Virus genome (UHGV): UHGV-0133447
Length of the DNA: 28,245 bases
Reading direction: 5' to 3' (one strand)
From: a virus
The first letter of the stretch is position 1. Each line of letters opens with the position of its first letter. Positions 5,672 to 28,245 of this stretch are shown one piece after another. The position numbers and the translations under genes were made by a program. A model generated the notes under the pieces. It saw only the letters and a list, made by a program, of their open reading frames with translations. It made no database searches and was not told where the DNA came from.

Positions 5672-5854
5672 TGTGACAGCCACCAAAAATCACTGTAAAA
5701 ATATCAGGATTCACCACCCTCTCAGACGGATTTATTCTTCTTGTTCAGTCTCGTCCGCGTACGAAGCCAAGGATGTATCCAAGACCAAAACAAGAAAAAC
5801 CGAATCCCACCACGGGTAATACTGAATAAATAAAATCAGGCATAGGGAAATCTC

Positions 5855-6265
5855 ATGGAAATTATTTCAGTAATCGGAGTGATACTGACACTGCTAGGGC
5901 TCTTTATTCCGTCACTAATCAGTAACCATTCGTCACGTAAGGCAGAGTTCAGGAAGCATTCCGCACCACTGCTGGGAAAGTTGCTAAGCGAAATTGAGGC
6001 TATTGAAGGAGGCTCTTATCCATTCAGGCTTATCAGCGATGCTGATTTCAACCAGTTGCTACCTTACGCCCCGAGGCGCAGGAAAAACGCTCTCCTTGAT
6101 GCTTACACCAGTTATCTCGACGCTCATACGATGGCCACCACGAAGCACTGGCACGATGAACATCCATCCGATGGAATGCTATTTTTCCCGACGGGTTTCT
6201 CAGTCACTAATTCAGATGAGGTACTGAAGAAAATGCAACCTCTGAAAAAAGAACTCAGCAGATAG
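5855..6265 (+). CDS. Hypothetical N-terminally membrane-anchored protein (136 aa), opposite-strand moron
   Basis: ORF with an N-terminal TM (IISVIGVILTLLGLFIPSLI). Lies on the strand opposite to the late operon and is bracketed by the 14-bp direct repeat. Confidence 0.6.
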   Translation: MEIISVIGVILTLLGLFIPSLISNHSSRKAEFRKHSAPLLGKLLSEIEAIEGGSYPFRLISDADFNQLLPYAPRRRKNALLDAYTSYLDAHTMATTKHWHDEHPSDGMLFFPTGFSVTNSDEVLKKMQPLKKELSR

Positions 6266-6270
6266 TCCTT

Positions 6271-6284
6271 TAGGATGGCCGCCA
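6271..6284. repeat. 14-bp direct repeat TAGGATGGCCGCCA (right copy)
   Basis: Identical to 5658-5671. Starts 6 nt after the stop of the 136-aa ORF. Confidence 0.8.
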
Positions 6285-6330
6285 GATGGATTAACGACAA
6301 AGCACAGAGTGAATGATGCTCTGGTGGCAC

Positions 6331-6358
6331 AAATAAAAAAGCCATGCAAATGCATGGC
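6331..6358 (-). terminator. Rho-independent terminator (minus strand)
   Basis: GCCATGCA-AA-TGCATGGC (6341-6358). The minus-strand reading is followed by TTTTTTATTT. Confidence 0.65.
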
Positions 6359-6462
6359 CTTGTGGTTTGAATCCGTTATTTACAAAATGTATTCGAGACA
6401 GTATCTTTCGACTTCCGGACAAAAAAACATATACCGGGACAAAATCTAAATGTAACTGCCTT

Positions 6463-6493
6463 GCCTGCATGAAACCATGCGGGCTTTTTTTTT
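6463..6493 (+). terminator. Rho-independent terminator (plus strand)
   Basis: GCCTGCATG-AAAC-CATGCGGGC (one G.T pair) followed by T9 (6485-6493). Confidence 0.7.
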
Positions 6494-6495
6494 GG

Positions 6496-6522
6496 CCAAA
6501 GAAAAAGCCCACCGAAGTGGGC
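6496..6522 (-). terminator. Rho-independent terminator (minus strand), back-to-back with the plus-strand one
   Basis: Minus-strand reading is GCCCAC-TTCG-GTGGGC followed by TTTTTCTTT. Confidence 0.7.
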
Positions 6523-6549
6523 CTTACAGCTATCATCATTTTTTATTAG

Positions 6550-6662
6550 GTGTGGTGCCGGGTGCCTCCCGGTAAGTCGCCGCCAGTCCACAGACGACTC
6601 GCAATGCGCAAAAAAACATATCAGACTGGCAATGCCCCTCCGCATAGGGGGATTCACCACAC
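6550..6662. ncRNA. Cloverleaf-like multi-stem element of unknown function (strand undetermined)
   Basis: Outer stem GTGTGGTG (6550-6557) with CACCACAC (6655-6662). It encloses three nested hairpins: CCGGG-TGCCT-CCCGG, GCCAGTC...GACTGGC and CCCCT-CCGCAT-AGGGG. The ORFs on the track here look spurious. Confidence 0.35.
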
Positions 6663-6744
6663 GGATAATTTAGGATGTAGTCATAGGCGGCGTCAATAAC
6701 TGACACTCTGTCAAAGGCATCATTACGATGCCTTTTGCACAGTG

Positions 6745-7453: not shown

Positions 7454-7954
7454 TTAAATAGATGAAAAATCACCATGGTACTGCCTGGAAGCAGCTACAT
7501 ACGCCCTGTGCGCTTCTTCTTTAGTGTGGAAGCGACCAAGTCGAATTTTTTTCTTTGCAATACTTATTTGCGCAATCCATTTTTTTCTATTGCGGGGGGA
7601 ATCGTTGAAATAGACCCCTTTAAGTCCAGCTGCGTTATTGCTGTGTATCCGTCGATTGCGAGTGTTCTGGTTTTGTGTGCAGAGCCTGAGATTTGTAATA
7701 CGGTTATTCAACTTGTCGCCATCAATATGATCAACAACAAGGGTTGACGGAATTTCACCGTATTTCAAGACCCAAATTATTCGGTGCACACGTATATTCT
7801 TTCCATTGAAGAATACCCTTAAATACCCAGTATCAGTCTTGACGCCAAGAGTGTCGCCAGGACTTTTACTCCCAAAAGGTGACTTGCAATAAAGGATGCC
7901 CGTAGTTTCATCGTATGAAAAAAAGTTCCTAACCGTTTCAAGAGATAGATTCAT
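7454..7954 (-). CDS. HNH homing-type endonuclease with AP2-like DNA-binding domain
   Basis: 166 aa. VDHIDGDKLNNRITNLRLCTQNQN is an HNH_3 motif. The C-terminal GVYF...KWIAQISIAKKKIRLGRFHTKEEAHRAY is AP2-like. AGGAG RBS. Confidence 0.85.
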   Translation of the reverse strand: MNLSLETVRNFFSYDETTGILYCKSPFGSKSPGDTLGVKTDTGYLRVFFNGKNIRVHRIIWVLKYGEIPSTLVVDHIDGDKLNNRITNLRLCTQNQNTRNRRIHSNNAAGLKGVYFNDSPRNRKKWIAQISIAKKKIRLGRFHTKEEAHRAYVAASRQYHGDFSSI

Positions 7955-8505: not shown

Positions 8506-8581
8506 TGGTGCTGGTTGACGGAATCGAACCGCCGACATCCTGCTTACAAGGCAGGCGCTCTACCAGCTGAGCTAAACCAGC
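8506..8581 (-). tRNA. tRNA-Thr (anticodon UGU), CCA encoded
   Basis: The reverse complement folds as a canonical cloverleaf: GCTGGTT/AACCAGC acceptor, GCTC-AGCTGGTA-GAGC D arm, CCTGC-CTTGTAA-GCAGG anticodon arm, GGCGG-TTCGATT-CCGTC T arm, and ACCA 3' end. Confidence 0.93.
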
Positions 8582-9621
8582 AAATTACGCATTTCACTGA
8601 CCGTCTGTTCAAATCTCTCGGTTTCCAGTTCGACACCTAGTCCCCTTCGCCCGAGAAGAGCAGCCTGCTTGAGCGTTGAGCCTGATCCAAAAAAGAAATC
8701 AGCTACAACATCACCCGGGCGGCTACTCGCTGTGATTATCTGCTCCAGCATATCCGCAGGCTTTTCACATGGGTGTTTACCTGGATAAAACTGAACAGGC
8801 TTATGAGTCCAGACGTCGGTATATGGCACCGTGACCGATACGCTGAATGGTCGCCGTAAACGGTAATATTCCTGCTGGAGTTCAGAATATTTTCGGCTTA
8901 ACGATTGCCAGGTGCCGACAAGCTGGTGGTGAGGTTTTCCCAGTTCGTTGCGTGAGTGCTTATCCATGGCGATTGTTTGAAACAAAGCCTGCAACTTTAA
9001 ATAATCGGCTTCGTTCGGTAGCTGCCACTGACTAAGGCCAAACCAGTGGGAAACCATATTTTTCTTACCTGTGGCTTCTGCAATCTGAGCCGACGTCACG
9101 CCAAGAGATTCCCGTGCATCACGGAAGTAAGAAATTAAAGGCGTCATGACGTGTTGCTTTAACTCATTACACTTTGCGGCATATCCATCGTCTTTGGGCC
9201 TGTATGGCCCCTGATAATGGTCGGCAAAAATGATACGCTCAGTGGCCGGGAAATAAGCGCGTAAGCTCTCCTTATTGCAGCCGTTCCATCGCCCTGATGG
9301 CTTAGCCCAGATGATATGGTTGAGCAGGTTAAACCGCTCTCTCACCAACAGCTCAATATCCGCTGCCAGGCGGTGCCCACAGAACAGATACATGCTGCCG
9401 GCAGGTTTTAACACTCGCCAGAACTGTGCCAGACAGCTATCCAGCCAACGTAAATAGTCTTCGTCCCCCTTCCATTGGTTATCCCAGCCGTTTGGCTTCA
9501 CCTTAAAATAAGGCGGATCGGTAACAATAAGATCAATGGAGTTATCGGGTAGCGATGGGAGGTATTGCAGGCAATCAGCATTGATTAACTCAATACTGGA
9601 TATTTTTACAGTATTTTTCAT
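8572..9621 (-). CDS. DNA methyltransferase, beta-class N6A/N4C (DPPY motif)
   Basis: 349 aa. Motif IV IVTDPPYF is near the N-terminus and motif I DFFFGSGST near the C-terminus, which is the beta-class order. The target base cannot be told from sequence by eye. Confidence 0.9.
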   Translation of the reverse strand: MKNTVKISSIELINADCLQYLPSLPDNSIDLIVTDPPYFKVKPNGWDNQWKGDEDYLRWLDSCLAQFWRVLKPAGSMYLFCGHRLAADIELLVRERFNLLNHIIWAKPSGRWNGCNKESLRAYFPATERIIFADHYQGPYRPKDDGYAAKCNELKQHVMTPLISYFRDARESLGVTSAQIAEATGKKNMVSHWFGLSQWQLPNEADYLKLQALFQTIAMDKHSRNELGKPHHQLVGTWQSLSRKYSELQQEYYRLRRPFSVSVTVPYTDVWTHKPVQFYPGKHPCEKPADMLEQIITASSRPGDVVADFFFGSGSTLKQAALLGRRGLGVELETERFEQTVSEMRNLLV

Positions 9622-14410: not shown

Positions 14411-16389
14411 GCTGCCTGCTCCTCTCTGTTCACGCACATTTCGGGTAAGTTGGCGCGTACCAGCGCTTCGGCGAACGGCGGCGGGACGGCATTGCCACAG
14501 CGCGCGACCTGCTTATCTTTCGCGTATTTCACGCCGCGGTAATCCTGGTCAATGATGTACCACTCCGGAAAGCCCTGCGCCCGATAGAGCTCGTGCGGCT
14601 GCAGCATGCGCATGCCGATATCAACGATGCGGTAAGTCACTCCGCCGATTTCCACCAGCCCGGTGCATTCCTCTCCGCAGTATTCCTGCAGGAACGACAG
14701 CACCTGCTGCGCTCGCTCTTCGTCATAGTCCTCGACCGCCAGAGTCGTTTTAACCTCCCCTACATGCTGGCCACCGGCAGTGATAGTCGGCATCGGCTCG
14801 TCAGTTCGCTGGCCATCGCGGCAGGTTCCGCGCAGCTTAACCAGATGAGAAGCGACTAATGCATGGTGATCGACAGTCGTTACTGAATGCGCTGGCTCAT
14901 CCAGCCCCACGCCAGCGCCCTGATAATTCCCTCCGTAGTGTTTTGCCAGGAACGCACCAACTACAGCATGTTTCCCGCCACCAGCCACAACGGTGCCCAG
15001 CGGCTTATCCAGTCCTGGCACGCGAGGTGCCTGTCCTGGCCGTTCCCCGTATCCCATTTGAATGAGCGTCGGCACAACCAGCTGCGATTTACCTCCGCCG
15101 CCCGCGGTGATTGTTGCGCTAGGCTCATCCGCCCGGTGTCCGATGCTGGCGCCGAACTGCCGGGCGATAACCGGAGCGACGACACAGGCGCGCGATTCTT
15201 TCAGGATGGTGTGAGCGGGTTTATCGAGCGGGCGTGGTTTAGCCTGGTACTCGCTGCCGCCATTGCCAGCCAGGAACGGCGCCAGCTCTGCTTCAACAAT
15301 ACCCAGAGCGTGACCATTCCCGCCCGGGCGTTTTGCGGTACCGGCCGTCACCGTCGGCAACGGATCGGTGACTTCCTGCCCGGTAGCTCCAGTTCGGAAT
15401 TTTGTCAGATGAGGTACCGCAATTGCGTAGCCGTGGGTTTTCGTAATCGTCTGTAGCGGATCGTCCAGCGCCTGTCCCCGGAAACAGTCGTATTTGCCGC
15501 GTGTCGTTGTGTGATTGCACTTCACGATGAACGGCGAAGCGCTTTCGATAACAAAGCGCTGAATGCCGCGGGCAATCCGTTTTAGCGTATTCTCTGCCAG
15601 TGACTTTTTGCGACCGAAGATGCTCGGCGCGGGGATTGACCAGTCTATGCATTCCGCAGCTGTACGCCACGGCTCAAGCTGGCCCGCCAGCACGGCGGCA
15701 GACTTCGGATCCCCGTGCGTGGCTTCCGGCCAGACTATCAGTTTCCCGTCCCGGCGCATCACCATGAAGAACCGCTTACGGATGGTCGGCGCGCCATAAT
15801 CGCAGGCGCGCAGCTCGCGAAAATCGACGACATAACCCAGCCCGGCAATTAAGCGCTTGGCCTGCTCGCTATCCGGTGAAAACTCCAGAAACTCGCAACA
15901 CTCCACCAGTGCAGGATGATCTGCTGGAATACCGGTGGTAAGCATCCCGACAAATGCATTGAAAGTTTCACCGATGCGTGCCGGATCCGGTCGCATTTCT
16001 GCCGCGAGTAACGGACCCCACGTCTTAAACTCTTCGACGTTTTCCAGCATCATGACTCGCGGGCCAACATCCAGCGCCCAACGAATGACGATCCATGCCA
16101 GCCCTCGAATAGCTTTCTCTACTGGTTTAGCACCTTTCGCTTTAGAAAAGTGACGACAGTCAGGCGAGAACCATGCCAGGCCGACAGGCTTGCTACTGGT
16201 AGCGGCTAATGGGGATACATCAAACACACTTTCGCAATAGTGAAGCGTGTCGGGATGGTTAGTGCGGTGCATAGCAACGGCGTTAACATCGTGGTTAATA
16301 GCGATATCAACACTGCGCCCTATTGCCAGTTCAATACCTGTACTGGCTCCACCGCCGCCAGCGAAATTATCGACAATAATCTCACGCAT
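14407..16389 (-). CDS. DNA (cytosine-5) methyltransferase with greatly expanded, internally repeated target-recognition region
   Basis: Motif I DNFAGGGGAS, IV SPDCRHFS, VI MLENV, VIII TIRKRFF, IX LQPHELYRAQGFP and X GNAVPPP. About 375 aa lie between VIII and IX and contain about 7 D-[EDK]-P-x(2,3)-T-[IV] repeats. Confidence 0.92.
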   Translation of the reverse strand: MREIIVDNFAGGGGASTGIELAIGRSVDIAINHDVNAVAMHRTNHPDTLHYCESVFDVSPLAATSSKPVGLAWFSPDCRHFSKAKGAKPVEKAIRGLAWIVIRWALDVGPRVMMLENVEEFKTWGPLLAAEMRPDPARIGETFNAFVGMLTTGIPADHPALVECCEFLEFSPDSEQAKRLIAGLGYVVDFRELRACDYGAPTIRKRFFMVMRRDGKLIVWPEATHGDPKSAAVLAGQLEPWRTAAECIDWSIPAPSIFGRKKSLAENTLKRIARGIQRFVIESASPFIVKCNHTTTRGKYDCFRGQALDDPLQTITKTHGYAIAVPHLTKFRTGATGQEVTDPLPTVTAGTAKRPGGNGHALGIVEAELAPFLAGNGGSEYQAKPRPLDKPAHTILKESRACVVAPVIARQFGASIGHRADEPSATITAGGGGKSQLVVPTLIQMGYGERPGQAPRVPGLDKPLGTVVAGGGKHAVVGAFLAKHYGGNYQGAGVGLDEPAHSVTTVDHHALVASHLVKLRGTCRDGQRTDEPMPTITAGGQHVGEVKTTLAVEDYDEERAQQVLSFLQEYCGEECTGLVEIGGVTYRIVDIGMRMLQPHELYRAQGFPEWYIIDQDYRGVKYAKDKQVARCGNAVPPPFAEALVRANLPEMCVNREEQAA

Positions 16390-17335
16390 GAGCGGTCCCC
16401 CTCATGCTGCCGACCAGCCCACCAGCAACGGTGATGATTTCGCTGGTGGGCACGCGCTCCAGCCACAACTGGTTAATGTGGGCCTTCAGCTTGTTCTGCT
16501 GGGAGAACTCCAGATCCTCTGCGCCTTGTACCTGTCCAAAGACGAGTCCAACTTCCAGTGGCCAGATCCGGGATTCAGGCTCAGCCAATGATGCAACAGC
16601 ATCGGGGATGATCACTTCAGGAGACTGAACTGGCGAAACTGGTGACAGGAATTTTCCTGCAGCAAACTCAGCCAGCGCCATACTTGCGCGCCCTTTTGCT
16701 TCCAGCTCAACGCGATCGATATAGCTAAAATGTTCACCGCGCCAGGTCTTATCAAATACCGCAATGGCCCCGGCAAAGAATGCGCTGGTGGGCTTCTGCT
16801 TTTCGTCGGCCGGCACAAACCACGTTGGGAGATCGAATCCAATACGACCACGAATAAACATGATGTGATCGGCATATTCCGGCCACCATGTTTCACTTGT
16901 TGCTGACTTCACGAGGTAAATGTAACGACCACCCTTTTCACGCTGCTCGGCGGTATAGTTCATAATATGAGTCATGCCAGTGATGGCTTGTTTTTCATGG
17001 TACTGCGAACGGCTATACGGCGGATTAGCAAAGGCCGCTCCTCCGAGTTCTACCAAACGACCAGACCAGTCCTGCGTCAGCGCATTATCTTCAGCGGTAT
17101 ACCATGCCGGACATTTTGTATTGCTGTCGTCTGCAAACAGGTCCAGTACCAGCGGGCCAAACATAGCGTTAACGCCCCAGAACAGCAGATCAGGGGTACG
17201 CCATTGATCCCCGACTTCTTTTAAATAATGCGCACTACGCTGGCGCTGTTCCTCAAGTGCCAGGCAATAAGGGCTGACGGTTTTTGTTAAAGTTTGCTCT
17301 TCTGCGGTCATAGCTTCTTGTACTTCCTGACTCAT
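16382..17335 (-). CDS. Phage-type DNA N6-adenine methyltransferase (Dam, PF05869-like) with C-terminal extension
   Basis: WRTPDLLFWGVNAMFGPLVLDLFAD...FANPPYSRS matches the phage Dam family pattern as I recall it. Overlaps both neighbours. Confidence 0.85.
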   Translation of the reverse strand: MSQEVQEAMTAEEQTLTKTVSPYCLALEEQRQRSAHYLKEVGDQWRTPDLLFWGVNAMFGPLVLDLFADDSNTKCPAWYTAEDNALTQDWSGRLVELGGAAFANPPYSRSQYHEKQAITGMTHIMNYTAEQREKGGRYIYLVKSATSETWWPEYADHIMFIRGRIGFDLPTWFVPADEKQKPTSAFFAGAIAVFDKTWRGEHFSYIDRVELEAKGRASMALAEFAAGKFLSPVSPVQSPEVIIPDAVASLAEPESRIWPLEVGLVFGQVQGAEDLEFSQQNKLKAHINQLWLERVPTSEIITVAGGLVGSMRGTAHA

Positions 17336-19221: not shown

Positions 19222-19773
19222 TTATTTCTCCATACACAAAGATTTATTCGCCACGACGCCCGGAGCTGCACACTCGCGGGCGTCACTCTTTTCTGGCTGA
19301 CAAAAGACACGGAACAGTAACGTTAAATGTTCCTGCCATTTCGCCATCACCTGATAGCTGTTCTCCTCAATTTGCTCGCGTTCTGCCTGGTCAATTACCC
19401 CATCAGCTGTAGCTTTACGCAGGTACTGCGAGTGTTTTCCTATCCACTCAATGGACTCCATAAGACGCTGGTTAATATCTGCGTTGTCCACGTCTTCAAT
19501 ATCTGCCAACGGAACAAAAACGCCGTTCGAGTGACGCGCTATAGCATTGGCAATATGATTTGACCCACCAGCACGCTGCAGCACCATTGCCCAGCCGAGA
19601 GGGAAAATCTGATCACCATCGGCACGTAAACGGTTAAACAATGCGTTTTCAGTAACGCCCAGCCACTCCGCAGCTTCCACGTAACCACCGTCCAGTTCGG
19701 TGATAGTCTTTTTAATCGCGGCCACCAGCCACGCCGGTTGCTTCTCTACTTTCCATTCAGGTTCTATACCCAC
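19222..19773 (-). CDS. CII-like regulatory protein (CP76/YdaT-type)
   Basis: 183 aa with a GTG start and AGGAGG 7 nt upstream. HTH-like AAEWLGVTENALFNRLR. Sits directly after the cro-like gene. Confidence 0.7.
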   Translation of the reverse strand: MGIEPEWKVEKQPAWLVAAIKKTITELDGGYVEAAEWLGVTENALFNRLRADGDQIFPLGWAMVLQRAGGSNHIANAIARHSNGVFVPLADIEDVDNADINQRLMESIEWIGKHSQYLRKATADGVIDQAEREQIEENSYQVMAKWQEHLTLLFRVFCQPEKSDARECAAPGVVANKSLCMEK

Positions 19774-20105: not shown

Positions 20106-20780
20106 ATGAAAACAATCCAGGAAATCAGGCGGTTAAACGCCAGAAAATTGCGTGATGGTGTTGGCGGTAATATTTACTTCGCCAATATGATTGATCGCGA
20201 GCCTACTCAAACCAGCCGGTTCATGGGAGATGGCGCCACTAAAAACATCGGCGATGCAATGGCAAGGCACATTGAAAAGTGTTTTGACTTACCTACTGGG
20301 TGGTTAGATCAGGAACATCAAACCACTAATGTTGCTAAAACGCCCGATGTCTCTGATACAAATAGAAATATCACCATGGTTCCGGTTATATCCTGGGTAC
20401 AAGCAGGAGCATGGACCGAAGTTGGCTATGCTGAGGTTGATTTGAATAGCACTGAAAACTATCCATGCCCTGTGCCTTGTGGGCCGATGACTTATATTCT
20501 TCGTGTTATTGGCGACTCAATGATCGACGAATATAGGCCCGGTGATATGATTTTTGTTGATCCCGAAGTTCCAGCAGTGCATGGAGATGATGTGATCGCC
20601 TTAATGCACGCTTCTGGTGAGACTACATTTAAACGGTTGATTGAAGATGCAGGACAACGCTATCTAAAAGCACTTAACTCAAATTGGCCAGAACCTTACA
20701 TCAAAATCAATGGTAATTGCTCTATCATTGGCACCGTAATTTTTTCCGGTAAACCAAGACGATACCGAACGAAAACATAA
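20106..20780 (+). CDS. cI: CI-type prophage repressor (HTH plus S24 LexA-like peptidase domain)
   Basis: 224 aa with an N-terminal HTH. VPVISWVQAGAW, GDSM and a C-terminal K-containing S24 fold pattern. Divergent from cro. Confidence 0.93.
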   Translation: MKTIQEIRRLNARKLRDGVGGNIYFANMIDREPTQTSRFMGDGATKNIGDAMARHIEKCFDLPTGWLDQEHQTTNVAKTPDVSDTNRNITMVPVISWVQAGAWTEVGYAEVDLNSTENYPCPVPCGPMTYILRVIGDSMIDEYRPGDMIFVDPEVPAVHGDDVIALMHASGETTFKRLIEDAGQRYLKALNSNWPEPYIKINGNCSIIGTVIFSGKPRRYRTKT

Positions 20781-20791
20781 CAAAGACTATT

Positions 20792-20818
20792 AAACCTGCT
20801 TCGGCGGGTTTTTTTACA
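20792..20818 (+). terminator. Rho-independent terminator after cI
   Basis: AACCTGC-TTCG-GCGGGTT followed by T-run 20809-20816. Confidence 0.8.
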
Positions 20819-20819
20819 C

Positions 20820-20862
20820 TTGACAATGTACCTCAACGGTACATAATGTACCTAAAAGAAAC
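20820..20862 (+). promoter_or_regulatory. PL-type early-left promoter with OL operator
   Basis: TTGACA 20820-25, a 16-17-nt spacer and CATAAT/ATAATG 20842-48. The spacer is itself the operator GTACCTCAACGGTAC (20828-42), the same consensus as OR. A half-site GTACC is at 20848-52. Confidence 0.7.
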
Positions 20863-20953
20863 AGCGAACAGGCAGGACGCCCACGAAGTAGCCGCCCGGG
20901 GCATATGAAGTCCGGGATGATTCGCTGACAGATAAACCAAATAGGAACAGATC

Positions 20954-21187
20954 ATGGCAAGCAAAGGCATTGAAAACCTTATCAAGGACGCATTGGCAAA
21001 CGGCTGTCATGTAGTCCGTAAAGCGCATCGCTTCGAGGTAAGCAAGAAAGGCCAAAAATCAATCACTCTTATTATTTGTGAAGATGGCACAGCTTACCGG
21101 GGAGATATTGACCTAACGATCGCCATAGCCATTCGCACTCAAAAAGAAATGCGCAGAATCCTCGGCCTGCCAGCCAAGGCAAGTTAA
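20954..21187 (+). CDS. Hypothetical 77-aa protein, first ORF of the early-left operon (N position, but no arginine-rich motif)
   Basis: ORF with an AGGAA RBS. No family recognised confidently. Confidence 0.6.
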   Translation: MASKGIENLIKDALANGCHVVRKAHRFEVSKKGQKSITLIICEDGTAYRGDIDLTIAIAIRTQKEMRRILGLPAKAS

Positions 21188-21629
21188 TTACCACAGGTGT
21201 CTTCGGGAGGGGTTGCGGAGCTGGATTGACCACCAGCAACAGAAACTCACCCGACATACAGCAGCCGTTTAGCCCACGGCGTCGGGGGTCCAGTAGACCT
21301 GGATTAATACTGTAGGGGTTGTGCCGGTTGGTCGCCGGCGCCCCGCCCGAAGATTCCTGATCGAACATGGCGAAAGCCGACAGCGTTGAAGGCGATTTTC
21401 TCGGTTTGCGCGCTAAACAATAGCGGGGGTGAAATCGGGGCGGAGAAGCAGAATCCGCGATGTCGGGACTTGATACTTCCGGCCAGACCAACAAGCCGAA
21501 TGATCGCGTAACGGTCCTTTGCATCTGCCCCGGCGAGGTGGCGCCGCCGGACCGGGGCAGATGAATCGTACACAACATGAAAGCGCATTCCATCTTCATC
21601 CGTCGTGGGGACTGGTTTGTAACTGAAGG

Positions 21630-21650
21630 AGTGCGCTTCCAGTTGTGAAC
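21630..21650 (+). repeat. 21-nt boxA-like motif, degenerate copy 0 (AGTGCGCTTCCAGTTGTGAAC)
   Basis: 14 of 19 core positions match copy 1. Lies 274 nt upstream of copy 1. Confidence 0.4.
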
Positions 21651-21903
21651 GGCAATATTCACGACCGTTGTATGGCACATGCAGCGTTAGCAGCCCGGAT
21701 GGTTCCCTTGAAGTTCCATGCGCTATCCGGACAACTGGAATGTGCAAGCCAAGTGTTTCAGGCACGACGTGCGCCCCACCAGCGCGGCGAAAAGGTGTGA
21801 CCCCCGGGAAGAGTCCGGGACACAACAGGAAAGAGTACTGAAGATGCCAGGAAACGCCCTACCGCCAGGCAGATAGACGGGTTATCCCGCAAGGGGTGGC
21901 GGC

Positions 21904-21924
21904 AGTGCTCTTACCGTTGTGGTG
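21904..21924 (+). repeat. 21-nt boxA-like motif, copy 1 (AGTGCTCTTACCGTTGTGGTG)
   Basis: Contains TGCTCTTA (compare lambda nut boxA CGCTCTTA and rrn boxA TGCTCTTTAACAA), followed by GT-rich GTTGTGGTG, which is also the 5' acceptor-like strand of module 1. Confidence 0.6.
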
Positions 21925-22042
21925 TAGCTCAAATGGATAGAGCGCCCCTTATGTGGGGAGTTGAGCACTAACCAATGTTCGCAACACAGGTTATCTCATG
22001 CGGCCGGCCGGACGTTATGCGGGTTCAAATCCCGTCACCACA
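21918..22042 (+). ncRNA. tRNA-like module 1 (canonical acceptor, D arm and T arm; non-canonical anticodon region with a 60-nt insertion)
   Basis: TGTGGTG (21918-24) pairs with CACCACA (22036-42). The D arm is TA-GCTC-AAATGGATA-GAGC and the T arm GCGGG-TTCAAAT-CCCGT (22019-35). The anticodon position has only CCCC-TTATGT-GGGG (a 6-nt loop) plus extra hairpins. No 3' CCA. Confidence 0.5.
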
Positions 22043-22081
22043 GCGCACAACGATGAGGGCATTGACGAGCAAGGCACAGAG

Positions 22082-22162
22082 TCTGGTTCGATTCCAGACG
22101 CCAGGATAGCTCTATATCTGGTGATGGGCAGGGAAAAGGTCCGTTCGATTCGGACACCGGCA
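22082..22162 (+). ncRNA. Two T-arm/acceptor-like minihelix fragments and a truncated tRNA-like unit
   Basis: TCTGG-TTCGATT-CCAGA (22082-98) and GTCCG-TTCGATT-CGGAC (22139-55) both have canonical T-loops. A D-arm-like TAGCTC lies at 22107-12. No complete cloverleaf can be drawn. Confidence 0.45.
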
Positions 22163-22182
22163 GTGCTCTCTTCGTTGTGGTA
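22162..22182 (+). repeat. 21-nt boxA-like motif, copy 2 (AGTGCTCTCTTCGTTGTGGTA)
   Basis: Shares GGCAGTGCTCT...CGTTGTGGT with copy 1. GTTGTGG (22174-80) pairs with CCACAAC (22287-93) after hairpin GGTGG-AGGCA-CCACC. Confidence 0.55.
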
Positions 22183-22320
22183 ATTGCGGCTATGCGCACG
22201 TGACGAGCCAACCCGTTCATGGAATGCGTTTCCGGGCAGTGTACGTCGCCGGTTATGGCTTAACCCGGCAGGTGGAGGCACCACCGCCACAACCTAGTTA
22301 ACTGTGCTGTGTGTAGTCTT

Positions 22321-22390
22321 GGCGGTTATCCAGTTTTCCACTATCCAAAGGAGGAAGAGGATAACGTTCTGATGGATAACCGCCCTTTTT
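22321..22390 (+). terminator. Long-loop hairpin plus T-tract (terminator/attenuator-like) inside the untranslated region
   Basis: GGCGGTTATCCA (22321-32) pairs with TGGATAACCGCC (22373-84), followed by CTTTTT (22385-90). The 40-nt loop contains AAGGAGGAAGAGGA and the ATG at 22372. Confidence 0.4.
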
Positions 22391-22533
22391 ACACAATACA
22401 AAAGAGCATCACCGGGCGACGGGCTCATTACCCAATCCACCCGGGCGGCGTCCTAACCGCAGGTGCTCTTCTGTGTTGTGTACGGAGAAATTCCCGGCGG
22501 TGGCAGCCGCCTTTCGAGAGGGTAAAACCATGA
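22372..22533 (+). CDS. Possible 53-aa leader ORF (uncertain), stop overlapping the next gene start (ATGA)
   Basis: MDNRPFYTIQKSITGRRAHYPIHPGG... with GAGGA about 10 nt upstream. It lies entirely over strongly paired RNA, so coding is doubtful. Confidence 0.25.
   Translation: MDNRPFYTIQKSITGRRAHYPIHPGGVLTAGALLCCVRRNSRRWQPPFERVKP
22462..22482 (+). repeat. 21-nt boxA-like motif, copy 3 (GGTGCTCTTCTGTGTTGTGTA), 3' arm of a roughly 21-bp stem
   Basis: Pairs with TACACAATACAAAAGAGCATC (22390-22410), with 18 Watson-Crick pairs, 2 G.U pairs and 1 mismatch. Lies 48 nt upstream of the next gene start. Confidence 0.55.
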
Positions 22534-22901
22534 GTAATGATCGCATGACAGTAGTGCCCGATTTCCTGGGTGAACTGGACGCCGGCGTATTCATGAACAA
22601 GATTGCGGCGGCTCTTAATACCACCGCGCTCGGCGTTCTGAACAACGGCAACAAAGGCAAGGTTGTCCTCACCTTTGATTTTGAGCGTATGGGCAACTCT
22701 GTTGAAGAGAAGCGCGTCAAGATTAAGCACAAGCTGAACTACAGCACCCCAACTCCCCGCGGCAAAGCGTCGGAGGAGGACACCACCGAAACACCAATGT
22801 GGGTTAACAAAGGTGGCAAGCTCACAATCCTGCAGGAGGATCAGGGGCAACTCTTCGGTATCACCGGCGCGGTGGACGGAAAGCTTAAAGCGGCTCAGTG
22901 A
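22530..22901 (+). CDS. Hypothetical early protein (YfdP-like position upstream of YfdQ/YfdR homologs)
   Basis: The ATG at 22530 with a GAGAGGG RBS is preferred over the track start at 22473. 123 aa. Family not recognised with certainty. Confidence 0.7.
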   Translation: MSNDRMTVVPDFLGELDAGVFMNKIAAALNTTALGVLNNGNKGKVVLTFDFERMGNSVEEKRVKIKHKLNYSTPTPRGKASEEDTTETPMWVNKGGKLTILQEDQGQLFGITGAVDGKLKAAQ

Positions 22902-22957
22902 ACCGCACGTACAAATTCACTGATACCACTTCGCTAATCAGTTAATAAGGAATTTTT

Positions 22958-23785
22958 ATGTCTCAGTTAGACAGCGGTACTTTTCAGCAGGTTAAAGATC
23001 TGGTGCTTTCCGGTTATCACCTGAACGATATCCCCGGCCTGGCCTGTCCGACCGCCCTGCTACCGCAGAATACCAGCATTGAAAGCCTGGAGCGTTTTGC
23101 TCTTGAGCGTTTCCGTTTCCGCGGTGCAATGGACACGACTAGCATTGATGATTTCGTTCGCTATTCTGTCGCTTATGCCCTGGAAGAAGAAAAAGCACGT
23201 TGCTTTATTGATGCCGATAACATGCTGGCTCGTTCTATCTTCAACATCGGTACGCTGGATAATCCCGGCCACGCTGATAACGTCGCCTCGATCAAGCTAA
23301 AGAAAACAGCGCCCTTCCGCGCGTTACTGGCGATCAACGGCGATCACCTTAATCAGAAGCAAATCGCCGAATGGCTTGAAGACTGGAGCGACTATCTCAC
23401 TGCGTTCGATGCTGACGGTAACACGATGAAAATCGCCCAGGCCGCTCAGGCAGTTCGCCGCGTCACCATCCAGCAAACTAATGCCTCCGACCATGAAGAT
23501 GGTGATTTCAGTGGCAAAAAATCGCTGATGCAGAGTATTGAAGCCAGCAGTAAAGAGGTTATGCCGGTAGCGTTTGAGTTTAAGTGTGTACCCTATGAAG
23601 GCTTGGGCGAACGTCGTTTCAGTCTGCGCAACAGTCTGCTGAAAAGTAATGACCCGGTATTCGTCCTGCGTATCGTCCAGTTGGAAGCCCAGGAAGAAGC
23701 GATCGCCAATGAGTTCCGTGATCTGCTGGTTGGCAAGTTCGCCGGCAAGCCGGTAGAAACCTTTATCGGCAACTTCAAGGCCTGA
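22958..23785 (+). CDS. yfdQ: DUF2303 family protein (YfdQ-like)
   Basis: 275 aa. The overall sequence and the context next to an HD-domain YfdR-like gene match my memory of CPS-53 yfdQ. Confidence 0.8.
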   Translation: MSQLDSGTFQQVKDLVLSGYHLNDIPGLACPTALLPQNTSIESLERFALERFRFRGAMDTTSIDDFVRYSVAYALEEEKARCFIDADNMLARSIFNIGTLDNPGHADNVASIKLKKTAPFRALLAINGDHLNQKQIAEWLEDWSDYLTAFDADGNTMKIAQAAQAVRRVTIQQTNASDHEDGDFSGKKSLMQSIEASSKEVMPVAFEFKCVPYEGLGERRFSLRNSLLKSNDPVFVLRIVQLEAQEEAIANEFRDLLVGKFAGKPVETFIGNFKA

Positions 23786-23797
23786 TTGCTCTCCATT

Positions 23798-23825
23798 AAA
23801 TCCCCGTCGTTGCGGGGATTTATTA
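23798..23825 (+). terminator. Hairpin with T-rich tail between the yfdQ-like and yfdR-like genes
   Basis: AAATCCCCG-TCGTTG-CGGGGATTT followed by ATTAAAG. Confidence 0.5.
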
Positions 23826-23917
23826 AAGCGTAATCCTGCAATTAATCGCCACCTGGCGAGGGATTCCTACACCCAAAAATCAGCGCTGTGCAGAGCGCAA
23901 TTAAATGGAGAAATACG

Positions 23918-24445
23918 ATGAGCTTTATTCAAACGTTCACAGGCAAGCACTTTAACTATCTCGATATCCAGCTGGATGCCATTGAGATCGAAGATATCGC
24001 TAACGCACTCTCGAATATTTGCCGCTTTGCTGGCCATCTTCCGGAGTTCTACAGCGTCGGTCAGCACAGCGTGTTAACCAGTCACCTGGTACCACAGGAG
24101 TTTGCACTTGAAGCACTGCTGCACGATGCCGCAGAGGCTTATTTGCAGGATATTCCAGCACCGCTTAAACGCCTGCTCCCGGACTACCGCGCCATTGAGG
24201 ATCGGGTTGATGCTGCTATCCGTCAAAAATTTGGCCTGCCATCTGAGCAGCACCCGACCGTGAAGTATGCCGACCTTGTGATGCTGGCCAGCGAACGTCG
24301 CGACTTTGAAATCGACGACGGCACCCACTGGCCGATGCTCGAAGGCATTATTCCTACCGACCAATTTGTGATTAATCCCGTCCGACCTGGTCAGTCTTAC
24401 GGCATGTTTATGAACCGCTTTAACCAACTGATGGAGCGGCGCTAA
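23918..24445 (+). CDS. yfdR: HD-domain 5'-deoxynucleotidase (YfdR-like)
   Basis: The ATG at 23918 (MSFIQTFTGKHFNYLD...) has a GGAG RBS. Contains the HD motif LLHDAAEAYLQDIPAPLKRLLPDY. Confidence 0.85.
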   Translation: MSFIQTFTGKHFNYLDIQLDAIEIEDIANALSNICRFAGHLPEFYSVGQHSVLTSHLVPQEFALEALLHDAAEAYLQDIPAPLKRLLPDYRAIEDRVDAAIRQKFGLPSEQHPTVKYADLVMLASERRDFEIDDGTHWPMLEGIIPTDQFVINPVRPGQSYGMFMNRFNQLMERR

Positions 24446-24645
24446 TGGCACATGTGAAAGTGAAAGAATTGGTTGCTGCAGCATACGCTGCAGCACCTGA
24501 CCTACCACCAGCAGCAGCACAATTAATGCAAGACATAGCGTCAAGGCTGGATGTGACCTTTGTCGCCCTTACAGAGGCAATGGACCAGAACACCGCTATG
24601 GCCGCGATGATAGCGAACCTGAGCGAGGAAAACAGAAATGGCTAA
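24445..24645 (+). CDS. Hypothetical 66-aa protein
   Basis: Start overlaps the upstream stop (TAATG) and the stop overlaps the next start. Ala-rich. Confidence 0.55.
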   Translation: MAHVKVKELVAAAYAAAPDLPPAAAQLMQDIASRLDVTFVALTEAMDQNTAMAAMIANLSEENRNG

Positions 24646-25426
24646 AAACTCGATCGATGCTTATGGCGCCAGCGGCAAGACAAACGTTCTGATGTTCGAG
24701 CCGAAAAATCTGCATATTGTCACTGACAAGGCTCACCCGCTTTACGATGAGCGTATTCACTTACCTCTCAGTGAGGCAATGGTGCTGAACATCATGGATC
24801 AAGGTGTTCTGGAGCCGATTATTGTGTGGAAAGACCCGGAAACGGGGCTGTCCTGTGTGGTCGATGGCCGTCAGCGTGTCCGCCATACCCTGGAAGCTAA
24901 CAGGCGTCTGGCAAAAGAGGGAAAAACCCCACTGCTGGTTCCGGCTGTCACTAAACGCGGTTCTGCTGTTCGTATGGCGCAGGCAATGGTCAGCGCAAAC
25001 GAAATCCGCCAGGCCGATACACCGCTGGGCCGAGCCAAAAAGATGGCTGATGCACTGGAGCGCGGGCATGACGAGGAAGACCTCGCGCTGATGTTCGGCG
25101 TCAGCGTCCCCACTGTACGCGCTACGCTATCCCTTCTGGATGCCACTCAGGCAGTCAAAGACGCGGTAGAGTCCGGCACAGTAACAGTTACCCAGGCACG
25201 TCAACTGGCATCACTAAAACCCGAAGAACAGCGGGAAAAGGTAGCCGAAATCGAAGCGGCGACCGCTGGCACTACTGGTCATGAAAAAGCGCGTCGTCAG
25301 CGCCAGGTTCTCGGCGATAAGAAACCGCGCCTTAAAACTCGCAAAGAAATCACTAAAGCCCTCGAAGCTGCCAGCGGTGAATACGCTGATGCTCTCCGCT
25401 GGGTACTTGGGGAGGTAACATTATGA
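24638..25426 (+). CDS. ParB/Srx N-terminal-domain protein with HTH
   Basis: 262 aa. EPIIVWKD...VVDGRQRVRH is a ParB-box-like motif, and EEDLALMFGVSVPTVRATLSLL is an HTH. Confidence 0.85.
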   Translation: MAKNSIDAYGASGKTNVLMFEPKNLHIVTDKAHPLYDERIHLPLSEAMVLNIMDQGVLEPIIVWKDPETGLSCVVDGRQRVRHTLEANRRLAKEGKTPLLVPAVTKRGSAVRMAQAMVSANEIRQADTPLGRAKKMADALERGHDEEDLALMFGVSVPTVRATLSLLDATQAVKDAVESGTVTVTQARQLASLKPEEQREKVAEIEAATAGTTGHEKARRQRQVLGDKKPRLKTRKEITKALEAASGEYADALRWVLGEVTL

Positions 25427-26499
25427 GTAAAGTAGGAGATCATTTCTTTGAGTTTCCTGCATCACGTGGAACTCAGGGCGTTTCAATCGTCCTGATGCTG
25501 AGTGTTCCTGCACGGACCCTTACGCGAGTTCTCGCCAGCGATAATTACGGGGACACTCTTGAACGCTCGCAGCGAGAACTGAACCCAGCCAGGGCGAAAA
25601 AGTTTTATCAGTATCTTGTTGAAGCATACGAAAACAAAGAGCCATTTATCATTCCACCGCTGGTAGGTAACTGCGATTCGTATGTTGAATTCGAAGAGTT
25701 CGGAAACACTAATGTCGGGGTGGCCCGATTCCCAATGGATGCAGAGATTAAATTGTTTGATGGTCAGCATCGCGCAGCAGGTATTGCGGAATATTGTCGC
25801 ACCATTGATGAACCGATCCATGTCCCGATGATGCTTACTCTCCAGTTGCCACTGAAAACGCGGCAGCAGTTTTTCTCGGACATTAACAACAATGTTTCGA
25901 AGCCATCTGCGGCAATCAACATGGCCTATAACGGGCGCGATAAGAACGCGCAGGTGATGGTCAGCTTTATCAGTTCACACGACGTCTTTTCTGAAGTCAC
26001 CGATTTTGAGCATAACGTCGTTCCCGCGAAAAACGATAAGTGGGTGAGCTTCAAGGCCCTTAGTGATGCCACAGCAAAATTTTCAGGTTCCTGCTCGCAG
26101 GATGATCTTGAAGGATTATGGAATGCGTGGCTTATGCTGACAGGTTTAGATGATATTCGCCGCGGTACGAATCAAGCCGAATATAAACGCGAGTATATCC
26201 AGTTCCATGCCGTGATGATTAATGCCTTCGGTTACGCAGTGCAGCGGCTAAGCGAAGGCCGGGGAGTTCGTGGGGTCACGCTGATGATTGAGGATCTGGT
26301 AATGAATACCGGCATTGCCGATCGTGAAGATTTCTTTCTTATTTCATCATGGGTCGGAATTTGCGCCAGCTGTGAGAAAGCTAGGCCAACGGTCATTGCG
26401 AATGTATCCGCTCAAAAGGCTGCAGCATCACGCCTGATGGATGCCATCGTGAATAAAAGCTTGTCTGTTAGTCGCGGTAAGGAGGCCAGCCATGACTGA
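25423..26499 (+). CDS. DGQHR-domain protein (DndB-like)
   Basis: 358 aa with a literal FDGQHR motif (KLFDGQHRAAGI) and FFSDINNNVSKPS downstream, as in the DndB/DGQHR family. ATGA overlap with the ParB-like gene. Confidence 0.85.
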   Translation: MSKVGDHFFEFPASRGTQGVSIVLMLSVPARTLTRVLASDNYGDTLERSQRELNPARAKKFYQYLVEAYENKEPFIIPPLVGNCDSYVEFEEFGNTNVGVARFPMDAEIKLFDGQHRAAGIAEYCRTIDEPIHVPMMLTLQLPLKTRQQFFSDINNNVSKPSAAINMAYNGRDKNAQVMVSFISSHDVFSEVTDFEHNVVPAKNDKWVSFKALSDATAKFSGSCSQDDLEGLWNAWLMLTGLDDIRRGTNQAEYKREYIQFHAVMINAFGYAVQRLSEGRGVRGVTLMIEDLVMNTGIADREDFFLISSWVGICASCEKARPTVIANVSAQKAAASRLMDAIVNKSLSVSRGKEASHD

Positions 26500-27073
26500 G
26501 GCTGAATTAGCGCTTGAACGAGCAAAAAAGCTGGCGTTCTTAATGACAGAGCGTTTCAGTATGAACCCCATTAGCGCCAAACTGCTTAATGAAGCATGGC
26601 GTCTTGCATTCCCTGACGAAGTTGCAGTGGCCAGGCGCATGAGGGCGCTGGTAGAGGCGCTGGAGAAGGCGCAGACCAAAAACGCACTCGTTGCCGGCGG
26701 CATTGAGGCTACAGCAAAGCTACATGAGCGCATCGCCGAGCTGGAAGAAGCAGAGCAAAAACTCTGTGCCGCTAACGTGACGCTTGATGCTCGCGCGGAA
26801 TTGGCTGAGCGCCGGTTGGCAGAGATGGAGTCCCGTACCGTCACCATTGAGCCATTCCGCTCGTTTGTCACTGATGCCGACTTAGCAGCGCTCCACCGCT
26901 TCGCCGAATGCTGTGATGACCCTGAATCTGGCGGTCACGATTTGGAACAAGAGCAGGTAAGGCGGCTTGAGGCAATCGGAGCATTGCAGCGTTCGGGGCG
27001 AATTAGCTACATCACGAGCTTTGGTGATGTCCTGATTTCGATTACCGCTGGCATCAAGTGGGAGGCTAAGTGA
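26492..27073 (+). CDS. Coiled-coil protein (possibly Ead/Ea22-like)
   Basis: 193 aa with a central heptad-like A/E/L-rich region. Coupled on both sides. The family call is weak. Confidence 0.55.
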   Translation: MTEAELALERAKKLAFLMTERFSMNPISAKLLNEAWRLAFPDEVAVARRMRALVEALEKAQTKNALVAGGIEATAKLHERIAELEEAEQKLCAANVTLDARAELAERRLAEMESRTVTIEPFRSFVTDADLAALHRFAECCDDPESGGHDLEQEQVRRLEAIGALQRSGRISYITSFGDVLISITAGIKWEAK

Positions 27074-27249
27074 TGGCAGAACGCTGGAAAATTTATCTCA
27101 CTATCGCATTCATCGCCCTTGGCGCTACACCGATAAGCATGGTAGCTGCAAAGATTTATGTACCCTCATGGGCGCTTATTTGCGGGCACTGTGGCGCGAT
27201 AATAGCCGGATTTATTTGTGCAGAATTAGGAAGGGGAGCCGACCAATGA
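27073..27249 (+). CDS. Small two-TM membrane ORF (58 aa; below the ORF-track cutoff)
   Basis: MAERWKIYLTIAFIALGATPISMVAAKIYVPSWALICGHCGAIIAGFICAELGRGADQ. The ATG overlaps the upstream TGA and the stop overlaps the next ATG. Confidence 0.5.
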   Translation: MAERWKIYLTIAFIALGATPISMVAAKIYVPSWALICGHCGAIIAGFICAELGRGADQ

Positions 27250-28154
27250 CCAGCAAAATATCCATAACCGACGAGCGACTTGCATCAATCCAGGCGACAA
27301 CAGTCGGGGTAAAACAGCGCGGGGCAATGCCGCGTGGTTTTTCAAAGTATCTTGTTGAAAACCTGGCCGCAATACTGGCAGAGCTACAGGAACGTCGCAA
27401 TGCCGCAAAAGGTCTTGACCTGGCGGGCTGGCAATTCAAATCAGTAAACGGTGACTGGTTGGGCCTAATTGACGAACACGGAAAGAATCAGGCCTTTCGT
27501 GAGGGTTGCGAAGTTCGCGAGGTTTTCGCTATGGCCGATGGCGTCAATGAACGCGACCAGGTACGCCGCGAGCACGCCGAGTGGTCACAGGCTACATTCG
27601 GCAATGTTGGTCCGGTTGGCCCATTGAAGCACCTGAGCAAAGAAGCGCTGGAAGCTGCTGCCGAGCCTGGCGACCTGTCGGAGTTTGCTGATATGCAGTT
27701 CCTGCTTTGGGACGCCCAGCGCCGGGCTGGTATCACTGATGATCAGATTACCCAGGCGATGATCGAGAAACTGGCGGTGAACAAACAGCGCGAATGGCCT
27801 GAGCCGAAAGACGGTGAGCCACGGTTGCACATTAAAGATCAGCCATCGGCGGTAGGGCCAGTAACAGACGCTATGGCTTACGCATTCCATCATGCGCTAA
27901 CCGATGGTCCCCTGGGTGATGACGATGTGGAGGATATTAAGATCGGATTGAGAGCAGCTTTCGCTAATGTAACCACCTATCAGCCATTACCAGTAGTGCT
28001 GAAAGAGCATCAAATCCGCGAACTAGTCAATAAACTGCGTGATATAGCTATTGAATATCACGGTACACAACAATTGCGTGAGCATATTGCTTGTGTTGTC
28101 CGCGCCGCTATGATCGCGGTCGCACAACCAGCGCCAAAAAGCGAAGTGAATTAG
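27246..28154 (+). CDS. DUF550-containing protein (MazG-like nucleotide pyrophosphohydrolase fold)
   Basis: The ATG at 27246 (MTSKISITDERL...) is coupled to the preceding ORF. The central segment EHAEWSQATFGNVGPVGPLKHLSKEALEAAAEPGDLSEFADMQFLLWDAQRRAGI matches the DUF550 pattern. Confidence 0.78.
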   Translation: MTSKISITDERLASIQATTVGVKQRGAMPRGFSKYLVENLAAILAELQERRNAAKGLDLAGWQFKSVNGDWLGLIDEHGKNQAFREGCEVREVFAMADGVNERDQVRREHAEWSQATFGNVGPVGPLKHLSKEALEAAAEPGDLSEFADMQFLLWDAQRRAGITDDQITQAMIEKLAVNKQREWPEPKDGEPRLHIKDQPSAVGPVTDAMAYAFHHALTDGPLGDDDVEDIKIGLRAAFANVTTYQPLPVVLKEHQIRELVNKLRDIAIEYHGTQQLREHIACVVRAAMIAVAQPAPKSEVN

Positions 28155-28197
28155 TAATATTCCCCGGGTGCAGCCGGGCTGTATGGAGATCCTGTCA

Positions 28198-28245
28198 TGG
28201 CAAAACTTATGAAAGCGAGTCAATGGGGAAAACGCGAATTTACCA
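28198..28245 (+). CDS. Start of a further early-operon ORF (runs off the window)
   Basis: ATG with GGAG about 10 nt upstream (MAKLMKASQWGKREFT...). Too short to classify. Confidence 0.35.

Follow-up and report, generated by a model that had tools for sequence, protein, structure and literature searches.

DndB (DptB; TIGR03233/PF14072) is encoded in chromosomal defence islands and is reported to be an ATP-modulated repressor of the dnd genes (PMC4507180; Xia 2019). HerB (YfjB), from the leading region of the F plasmid, is an orphan CTP-binding ParB-like protein that is induced on plasmid entry, binds chromosomal sites and reprograms transcription (PMC13370423). Here we compare with these and related systems two adjoining genes of the virus genome UHGV-0133447, a stretch of 28,245 nucleotides (nt) that is referred to below as the window and represents a lambdoid prophage. 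The upstream open reading frame (ORF1) encodes an orphan ParB-like protein of 262 amino acids (aa) and the downstream one (ORF2) a DGQHR-domain, DndB-family protein of 358 aa; both are new members of named, uncharacterised families and lie in the pL-side early operon. The initial annotation had presented them as a coupled pair. Our preferred reading, to which we assign a probability of roughly one half, is that they are two separately exchangeable, delayed-early accessory genes and that the DGQHR protein helps an incoming genome to establish itself, most probably through counter-defence.

Profile searches place ORF2 in the DGQHR family well within the threshold (TIGR03187, 193.7 bits against a cut-off of 58.85), and its sole Pfam match is DndB (PF14072; 5.8e-43, 147.7 bits against 29.1), which covers residues 11–277. 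It also matches phrog_7901 (5e-193), and PADLOC returned only its generic DndB model (1e-34). With DndB it has in common the Pfam family, the DGQHR, QR and FxxxN motifs and the architecture of a ParB/sulfiredoxin (ParB/Srx)-like N-terminal fold followed by a helical C-terminal half; it likely also shares nucleoside triphosphate (NTP)-modulated DNA binding. However, ORF2 is not DndB proper: it is only ∼26% identical to Salmonella DndB and reaches 100 of the 328 bits required by the TIGR03233 equivalog model, and, whereas DndB resides in a chromosomal defence island, the ORF2 family is found in early-entry regions of phages and plasmids. No dndCDE, dndA or dndFGH neighbours were detected among the scanned ORFs of the window or in any inspected phage, genome or plasmid locus (∼250 loci).

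The DGQHR motif is literally present, as the initial annotation had noted, and it lies within a set of residues that are invariant down to 31% identity in phage and plasmid homologues alike: RSQRE (48–52), DGQH (113–116), RQ (147–148), FxDIN (151–155), D194/E196/N198 and S209/K211. QR, DGQQR and FxxxN are the motifs of DUF262-type domains and are predicted to contribute to NTP binding (PMC4619093); their ORF2 counterparts, R48SQRE52, D113GQHR117 and F151xDIN155, are conserved in 46 close and nine distant homologues. This conservation supports an intact nucleotide-binding site in ORF2, and binding of both ATP and GTP has been demonstrated for a DndB-like protein from bacteria (PMC12704722). The same motif set, with DGQQR or DGQHR as its arginine motif, and a homologous ParB/Srx NTPase module characterize the DUF262 N-terminal domains of GmrSD, BrxU, SspE and DndI. 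Unlike the type IV-like nucleases GmrSD, BrxU and SspE, ORF2 carries no DUF1524/HNH domain recognizable by Pfam and falls outside that group, which suggests a sensor or NTPase module lacking its effector; a Foldseek match to SspE was non-significant (E = 3.2). The N-terminal domain is structurally similar to ParB/sulfiredoxin proteins, and fold matches in BFVD comprise DndB-like, GmrSD-N and AIPR proteins. In Pfam, PHROG and PDB searches, ORF2 showed no homology to the known anti-restriction proteins ArdA, ArdB/KlcA, ArdR or Ocr; its family is linked to ArdB, ArdR, KlcA-type genes and ssb through gene neighbourhood alone.

ORF1 has a ParB/Srx N-domain, a ParB-type helix-turn-helix (HTH) and a short basic C-terminal tail. 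Its only Pfam domain is HTH_ParB (9.7e-12), it matches phrog_1033, 'ParB-like partition protein' (1e-74), and its residues 47–240, which span both the N-domain and the HTH, align to Spo0J (1vz0) and Noc (7ng0) in the PDB with E ∼5e-6. The NCBIfam ParB models match below their cut-offs (TIGR00180, 31.7 bits against 58.45), and so does the Noc model. The domain calls of the initial annotation for both proteins, and their assignment to the ParB/Srx fold, are borne out. Like the CTPase clamps KorB, Noc and canonical ParB, ORF1 retains G77 and R80 in Box II and the N and R of Box III. It differs from them in that Box II reads GRQR instead of GERR (E to R, R to Q) and Box III A-N-E-I-R instead of ENxxR, with loss of the E (alignment to 1vz0), and in having neither a ParA partner, nor a recognizable parS, nor a canonical C-terminal domain. 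The (L/F/I)G(K/R)G(L/F/I) ParA-binding motif does not occur in the sequence, no C-terminal dimerisation domain was recognized, and PADLOC matched the protein to nothing.

The closest functional analogue of ORF1 in the literature is, by analogy, HerB. Both are orphan proteins with a ParB N-domain and an HTH, without ParA, borne on mobile elements and expressed early upon entry, presumably so in the case of ORF1. HerB is much larger, however (652 aa), and has extra D3 and D4 domains that form a V-shaped dimer, whereas ORF1 covers the equivalents of D1 and D2 only. Membership of the HerB family was considered and rejected: lacking D3–D4, ORF1 falls short of a coverage of at least 80% of D1–D4 with the D4 dimerisation core, as judged from the domain descriptions of HerB. 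Most likely, by analogy with KorB or HerB, ORF1 would be a regulator that binds or clamps the DNA of the phage or of the host in an NTP-gated manner. The CTP-switch clamp that the initial annotation had listed among its candidates is a plausible idea for this protein alone.

Are the two genes a unit? DGQHR loci were gathered from IMG/VR, GenBank phages, complete Escherichia coli genomes, GTDB species representatives and a contig index, and their neighbours were searched with an iterated ParB profile; the contig-index scan gave 12 loci only, so the survey is limited in phylogenetic breadth. In the clade whose DGQHR proteins are at least 87% identical to that of the window, 48 of the 51 informative loci have a ParB-like gene immediately upstream, and to this extent the co-conservation expected of a coupled pair was observed. 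It does not extend to more distant clades, where ParB accompanies DGQHR in one of 31 loci (70–74% identity) and in one of 12 species-representative genomes. No ParB was found with P0105, P0108 or P0113 (0 of 7 places), near the DGQHR gene in the region of the complete phage SPN1S, or beside DGQHR in any inspected plasmid. An upstream ParB-like gene does recur in two further loci, L056 and L072. Viewed from the other gene, the IMG/VR loci contain 411 window-type ParB genes versus 60 DGQHR genes, and a DGQHR gene lies downstream in only 21 of the 80 closest window-type ParB loci. The place after ParB is otherwise taken by a 135-aa coiled-coil ORF, MT-A70, Dam or other genes; it is a variable cargo slot. 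In L080 and L081, the nearest relatives that have no DGQHR gene, the 135-aa coiled-coil ORF directly follows ParB (5783–6190).

Nucleotide comparisons around their junction indicate that the two genes are inherited separately. L080 and L081 match the window (95.5% identity) over positions 22402–25415 only, diverging from ∼10 nt before the ParB stop codon, and L009 is 91.6% identical over 25421–26499, that is, over the DGQHR ORF, and nowhere upstream (blastn). Since these breakpoints fall at the gene borders, the DGQHR gene behaves as a single-gene mosaic module, while the ParB gene is part of the block upstream. Moreover, the ParB-like genes upstream in the ≥87% clade are of two types, that of the window and one of 271–323 aa that also matches HTH_ParB; BLASTP fails to relate the two (E = 0.41), yet the DGQHR proteins that adjoin them are 96% identical. 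In many loci small ORFs separate the ParB and DGQHR genes. The ORF positions and the ATGA at 25423–25426, which is common to the ORF1 stop and the ORF2 start, proved to be as first annotated, and both genes are preceded by a good Shine–Dalgarno sequence (GAGGAA at 24624 and GGAGG at 25409, respectively). However, genes overlap by 1–8 nt at every junction between 24445 and 27249, so the ATGA overlap does not mark this pair out. We conclude that the pair is a frequent neighbourhood in one group of Klebsiella/Escherichia prophages and not a conserved two-gene system: adjacency and overlap stand, whereas co-inheritance as a functional pair is not supported.

The two proteins also differ in where their relatives occur. 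Window-type ParB is confined to phages, its seven 'plasmid' matches being prophage-like Klebsiella records; it is present in 67 phage records, 31 of which are Burkholderia phages at 51% identity. DGQHR homologues (∼40% identity, 87–94% coverage) were detected by tblastn on 1056 plasmids, 878 of them predicted to be conjugative, including IncL/M plasmids of the pOXA-48 type. Five plasmid contexts were inspected and dndCDE occurred in none of them. In the IncL/M plasmid p142_B, which has a pOXA-48-type backbone, the DGQHR gene belongs to an array co-oriented towards oriT/mobA-traI and made up of JAB/RadC, an HTH gene, DUF4942, Hha, DUF1380, an antirestriction gene and ssb; by its position and orientation this looks like a leading region, although the record does not annotate oriT. 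In an IncN-like block the gene is flanked by mucAB and ardB-ardR-ccgD-ccgC and stands directly upstream of ardB-ardR. The neighbours of the gene in a MOBF Enterobacter plasmid include RadC, an antirestriction gene and an N6 methylase; on a Vibrio plasmid they include RadC and DUF4942, and in a Pseudomonas element an SprT-like gene, RdgC and a C5 methylase. In many 63.5-kb IncL plasmids of the pOXA-48 type (H80–H96; e.g. NZ_CP068321.1, 30197–32007) IS1 splits the DGQHR gene, which is intact in H74–H79; the split copies amount to natural knock-outs.

In phages, DGQHR genes lie in early operons with gam, kil, recT and methyltransferase genes nearby, and E. coli prophages (P0105) show the order cI-RexA-RexB-KilR-Gam-DUF1317-DGQHR. 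The subfamily thus appears to be carried in those regions of mobile elements that would be expressed first after DNA entry, in phage early operons as in the gene arrays of conjugative plasmids. Anti-defence genes are over-represented in leading regions (PMC11541004). The DGQHR protein would most likely aid the establishment of the entering genome through NTP-dependent DNA binding, and its most probable role would be a counter-defence tied to restriction or DNA modification, not the regulation of phosphorothioation. The anti-defence function listed among the candidates of the initial annotation accordingly gains contextual support from the plasmids, although its phosphorothioate-dependent version does not. 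We found no account in the literature of the ParB-like/DGQHR pair or of DGQHR genes in leading regions, and no earlier description, in the searchable literature, of a Dnd-independent DGQHR subfamily in the first-expressed regions of mobile elements; Samuel et al. (2024) do not discuss DGQHR genes, and their supplement lists a DGQHR family of seven members only.

Several observations weigh against this reading. The functional role is argued from guilt by association, a weak type of evidence, and annotated anti-restriction genes were present in only three (p142_B, the IncN-like block and the MOBF Enterobacter plasmid) of what were only five plasmid contexts. A single backbone, pOXA-48-like IncL/M, dominates the plasmid counts, and IS1 disrupts the DGQHR gene in many of these plasmids, which can therefore do without it. 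The early expression from pL is read only from gene order and a consensus scan. Because Boxes II and III of the ParB-like protein depart from the CTPase consensus, its binding of nucleotides is uncertain. Finally, ParB-like genes of two lineages adjoin DGQHR in roughly every second distinct context, which is beyond chance expectation, and their recurrence may reflect a looser functional relationship between the two genes.

A stronger relationship would be an obligate two-protein module, in which the HTH of the ParB-like protein provides sequence-specific loading and the DGQHR protein joins through the ParB/Srx N-domains to form a heterotypic NTP-gated clamp on phage DNA. The adjoining genes with their ATGA overlap, the shared fold and the two ParB lineages upstream of DGQHR in the close clade, in L056 and in L072 speak for such a module, which we nevertheless consider unlikely: the recombination breakpoints fall at the gene border, nearly identical DGQHR proteins stand beside dissimilar ParBs, small ORFs often intervene, most DGQHR contexts have no ParB and most ParB loci no DGQHR. 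Somewhat better placed, if still doubtful, is a proposal that overlaps with the preferred reading, namely that the DGQHR protein and, separately, the ParB-like protein target or regulate methyltransferases and so bring about a quick modification of the entering genome. It has parallels in DndB with DndCDE, in DpdB with DpdA and in ParB–methyltransferase fusions, the last being enriched in prophages (PMC12704722); together with IbrB-type ParB, such proteins exemplify a ParB/Srx-fold protein linked to DNA-modifying enzymes on mobile elements. In SPN1S (L063) the DGQHR gene (5001/5073–6068) overlaps by 4 nt, and is translationally coupled to, a gene for a 197-aa MT-A70 adenine methyltransferase (6065–6658), an arrangement also seen in L050–52, L078 and L207–L213, and MT-A70 lies within ∼1 kb downstream of DGQHR in 11 of the 31 loci of the 70–74% clade. 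A C5 methylase adjoins DGQHR in Vibrio phage Va_PF430-3_p42 and in L038, and phage KB12-38 has a PAPS reductase and a C5 methylase nearby. Some loci have MT-A70 or Dam after the window-type ParB, and in Burkholderia phage phi1026b (L247, 2255–4822) a 51%-identical ParB-like gene comes directly after a Mom-like gene and a gene for a 433-aa DNA methyltransferase, in an operon that begins at a CII-like gene and runs into replication genes. The window itself encodes three methyltransferases, but these are 8–16 kb away in another operon, and it has neither a fusion nor an adjoining modification enzyme, the links to MT-A70, Dam, C5 and Mom-like genes being confined to relatives. Many DGQHR loci, besides, have no methylase nearby, and methylases are common in such accessory regions anyway. 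About equally tentative is a bolder form of the preferred reading, according to which stand-alone DGQHR proteins are a widespread but so far unrecognised class of proteins that help mobile elements to establish themselves or to counteract restriction. In one version these nuclease-less relatives of the DUF262 sensors of GmrSD, BrxU, SspE and DndI would serve as NTP-dependent decoys or shields for self-methylated incoming DNA, which would account for the recurrent linkage of DGQHR genes to orphan methyltransferases.

The remaining explanations appear to us less probable still. One regards ORF2 as a prophage defence or abortive-infection (Abi) gene directed against other phages, with an AIPR/AbiU1/COG1479-like ParB-fold sensor joined to a HEPN-type effector half. 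Makarova et al. (PMC3632139) describe two domains in DndB, one ParB-like and the other a HEPN domain with relatives among Abi families; the gene behaves as a single-gene mobile cassette, and both the PADLOC match to DndB and the presence of AIPR among the BFVD matches would fit; even so, this is a quite improbable account. A HEPN domain was not confirmed in ORF2: no HEPN structure was matched, and the candidate Rx5H motif (R256-x5-H262) is not conserved in the family, for which reason the idea of a HEPN RNase was dropped. A phosphorothioate-specific tool, that is, a DndB mimic or antagonist that derepresses or represses the host dndBCDE genes or masks phosphorothioate-dependent restriction, would draw on the homology to DndB and on the latter's activity as an ATP-modulated repressor. 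Such a role, also raised in the initial annotation, found no support: the protein stays far below the DndB equivalog cut-off, dndCDE is lacking from the ∼250 phage and plasmid loci, and the family seems too widespread in mobile elements of Enterobacterales for an anti-Dnd device. Dnd systems are rare in Enterobacterales. We regard this explanation as very unlikely, and an even smaller chance is left to plain partition by the ParB-like protein on behalf of a plasmid-like prophage state. Partition has the PHROG and NCBIfam names ('partition protein') in its favour; against it, no ParA was found among the scanned ORFs of the window or in related loci, direct- and inverted-repeat scans of 20700–28245 revealed no ParB-type palindrome or repeat array that could be a parS, the TIGR00180 score is sub-threshold, the LG[KR]GL motif and the C-terminal dimerisation domain are lacking, and the related prophages are integrated, their integrases lying at tRNA sites.

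If DGQHR proteins of mobile elements do counter defence or aid establishment, they would form a new class of anti-defence proteins built on the ParB/Srx NTPase fold and common to temperate phages and clinically important conjugative plasmids (the IncL/M pOXA-48 carbapenemase backbone, IncN-type regions). The analysis also corrects an over-reading: two adjoining, overlapping genes for proteins of the same fold are here two modules of a mosaic operon and not a system. The 262-aa orphan ParB-like protein, for its part, may be a minimal phage-borne counterpart of HerB/KorB-type regulators and a tractable case for the study of candidate NTP-gated clamps outside partition.

Table 1. Positions of the two genes, their motifs and other features of the window
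Feature	Position (nt)	Strand	Remarks
Orphan ParB-like gene (ORF1), 262 aa	24638–25426	+	ParB/Srx N-domain, ParB-type HTH, short basic C-terminal tail
Box II equivalent, D76-G-R-Q-R-V-R82	24863–24883	+	Aligns with GERRxRA (HMMER alignment to 1vz0)
ParB-type HTH DNA-binding domain, residues 128–204	25019–25249	+	Pfam PF17762, 45.4 bits against a cut-off of 22.6
Mosaic junction and ATGA overlap	25415–25426		L080/L081 homology stops at 25415, L009 homology starts at 25421
DGQHR-domain (DndB-family) gene (ORF2), 358 aa	25423–26499	+	N-terminal ParB/Srx-like NTPase fold, helical C-terminal half
'QR' motif of DGQHR/DUF262 NTPase domains, R48-S-Q-R-E52	25564–25578	+	Invariant in phage and plasmid homologues
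Signature motif, D113-G-Q-H-R117	25759–25773	+	Counterpart of ParB GxxR and DUF262 DGQQR; D113–H116 invariant in alignments A1–A3
'FxxxN' motif, F150-F-S-D-I-N-N-N157	25870–25893	+	F151, D153, I154 and N155 invariant in phage and plasmid homologues
D194-F-E-H-N198	26002–26016	+	D, E and N invariant (alignments A1, A3)
pL-like promoter, TTGACA-16-CATAAT	20820–20847	+	Consensus scan 11/12; operator-like repeats (D18)
S24 cI-like repressor gene	20106–20780		Part of the confirmed context
CII-like gene	19222–19773	-	Part of the confirmed context
YfdQ (DUF2303) homologue	22958–23785	+	Likeness to E. coli CPS-53 prophage gene
HD protein, YfdR homologue	23888–24445	+	Likeness to E. coli CPS-53 prophage gene
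N6_N4 DNA methyltransferase gene	8572–9621	-	
C5-cytosine methyltransferase gene, 660 aa	14407–16389	-	
Dam-like methyltransferase gene	16382–17335	-	

The features that locate the two genes in the prophage are collected in Table 1. The early-left location given in the initial annotation is confirmed: downstream of the pL-like promoter, the plus-strand chain runs through phrog_204, YfdQ/DUF2303, the HD YfdR-like nucleotidase, a 66-aa ORF, the ParB-like gene and the DGQHR gene, and continues with a 193-aa coiled-coil ORF, a 59-aa membrane ORF and a DUF550 dATP/dGTP pyrophosphohydrolase. A promoter scan detected no further promoter-like sites on the plus strand between the pL-like promoter and position 28245, and the early transcript over both genes presumably starts at this promoter. 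According to one report, the CPS-53 yfdQ/yfdR cluster, when overexpressed, inhibits the initiation of chromosomal replication in E. coli, and YfdR binds DnaA (PMC4776307). The minus strand carries the terminase, lysis, Q and replication genes and the three DNA methyltransferase genes, owing to which the phage DNA is probably heavily methylated, a point to be weighed if the early genes act in restriction or anti-restriction. As annotated at the outset, no dnd, ssp or dpd genes, and no parA gene, were found among the 30 Pfam-scanned long ORFs across the window, which were selected out of the 65 that reach 90 aa; the others in many cases overlap scanned genes.

Some further observations concern the DNA between the pL-like promoter and the chain of early genes. 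A stretch of ∼1.3 kb downstream of the promoter (∼21190–22470) is without a convincing gene and contains several long inverted repeats; it may specify RNA instead of protein. A 202-aa ORF on the minus strand (21072–21680) has no Pfam or PHROG match. At 21918–22043 on the plus strand lies a tRNA-like element that scores 40 bits with the Rfam tRNA model (gathering score 29) and was not called by ARAGORN. Its acceptor, D and T arms are intact and 68 nt replace the 15-nt anticodon arm, and a 24-nt direct repeat (21900–21923 and 22158–22181) flanks it. On the late/nin side, the minus strand shows an Rfam match to the small RNA STnc100 (6494–6691, 100.7 bits), an HNH-AP2 homing-endonuclease-like ORF (7454–7954) and a tRNA-Thr gene (8506–8581), the last abutting the N6_N4 methylase gene.

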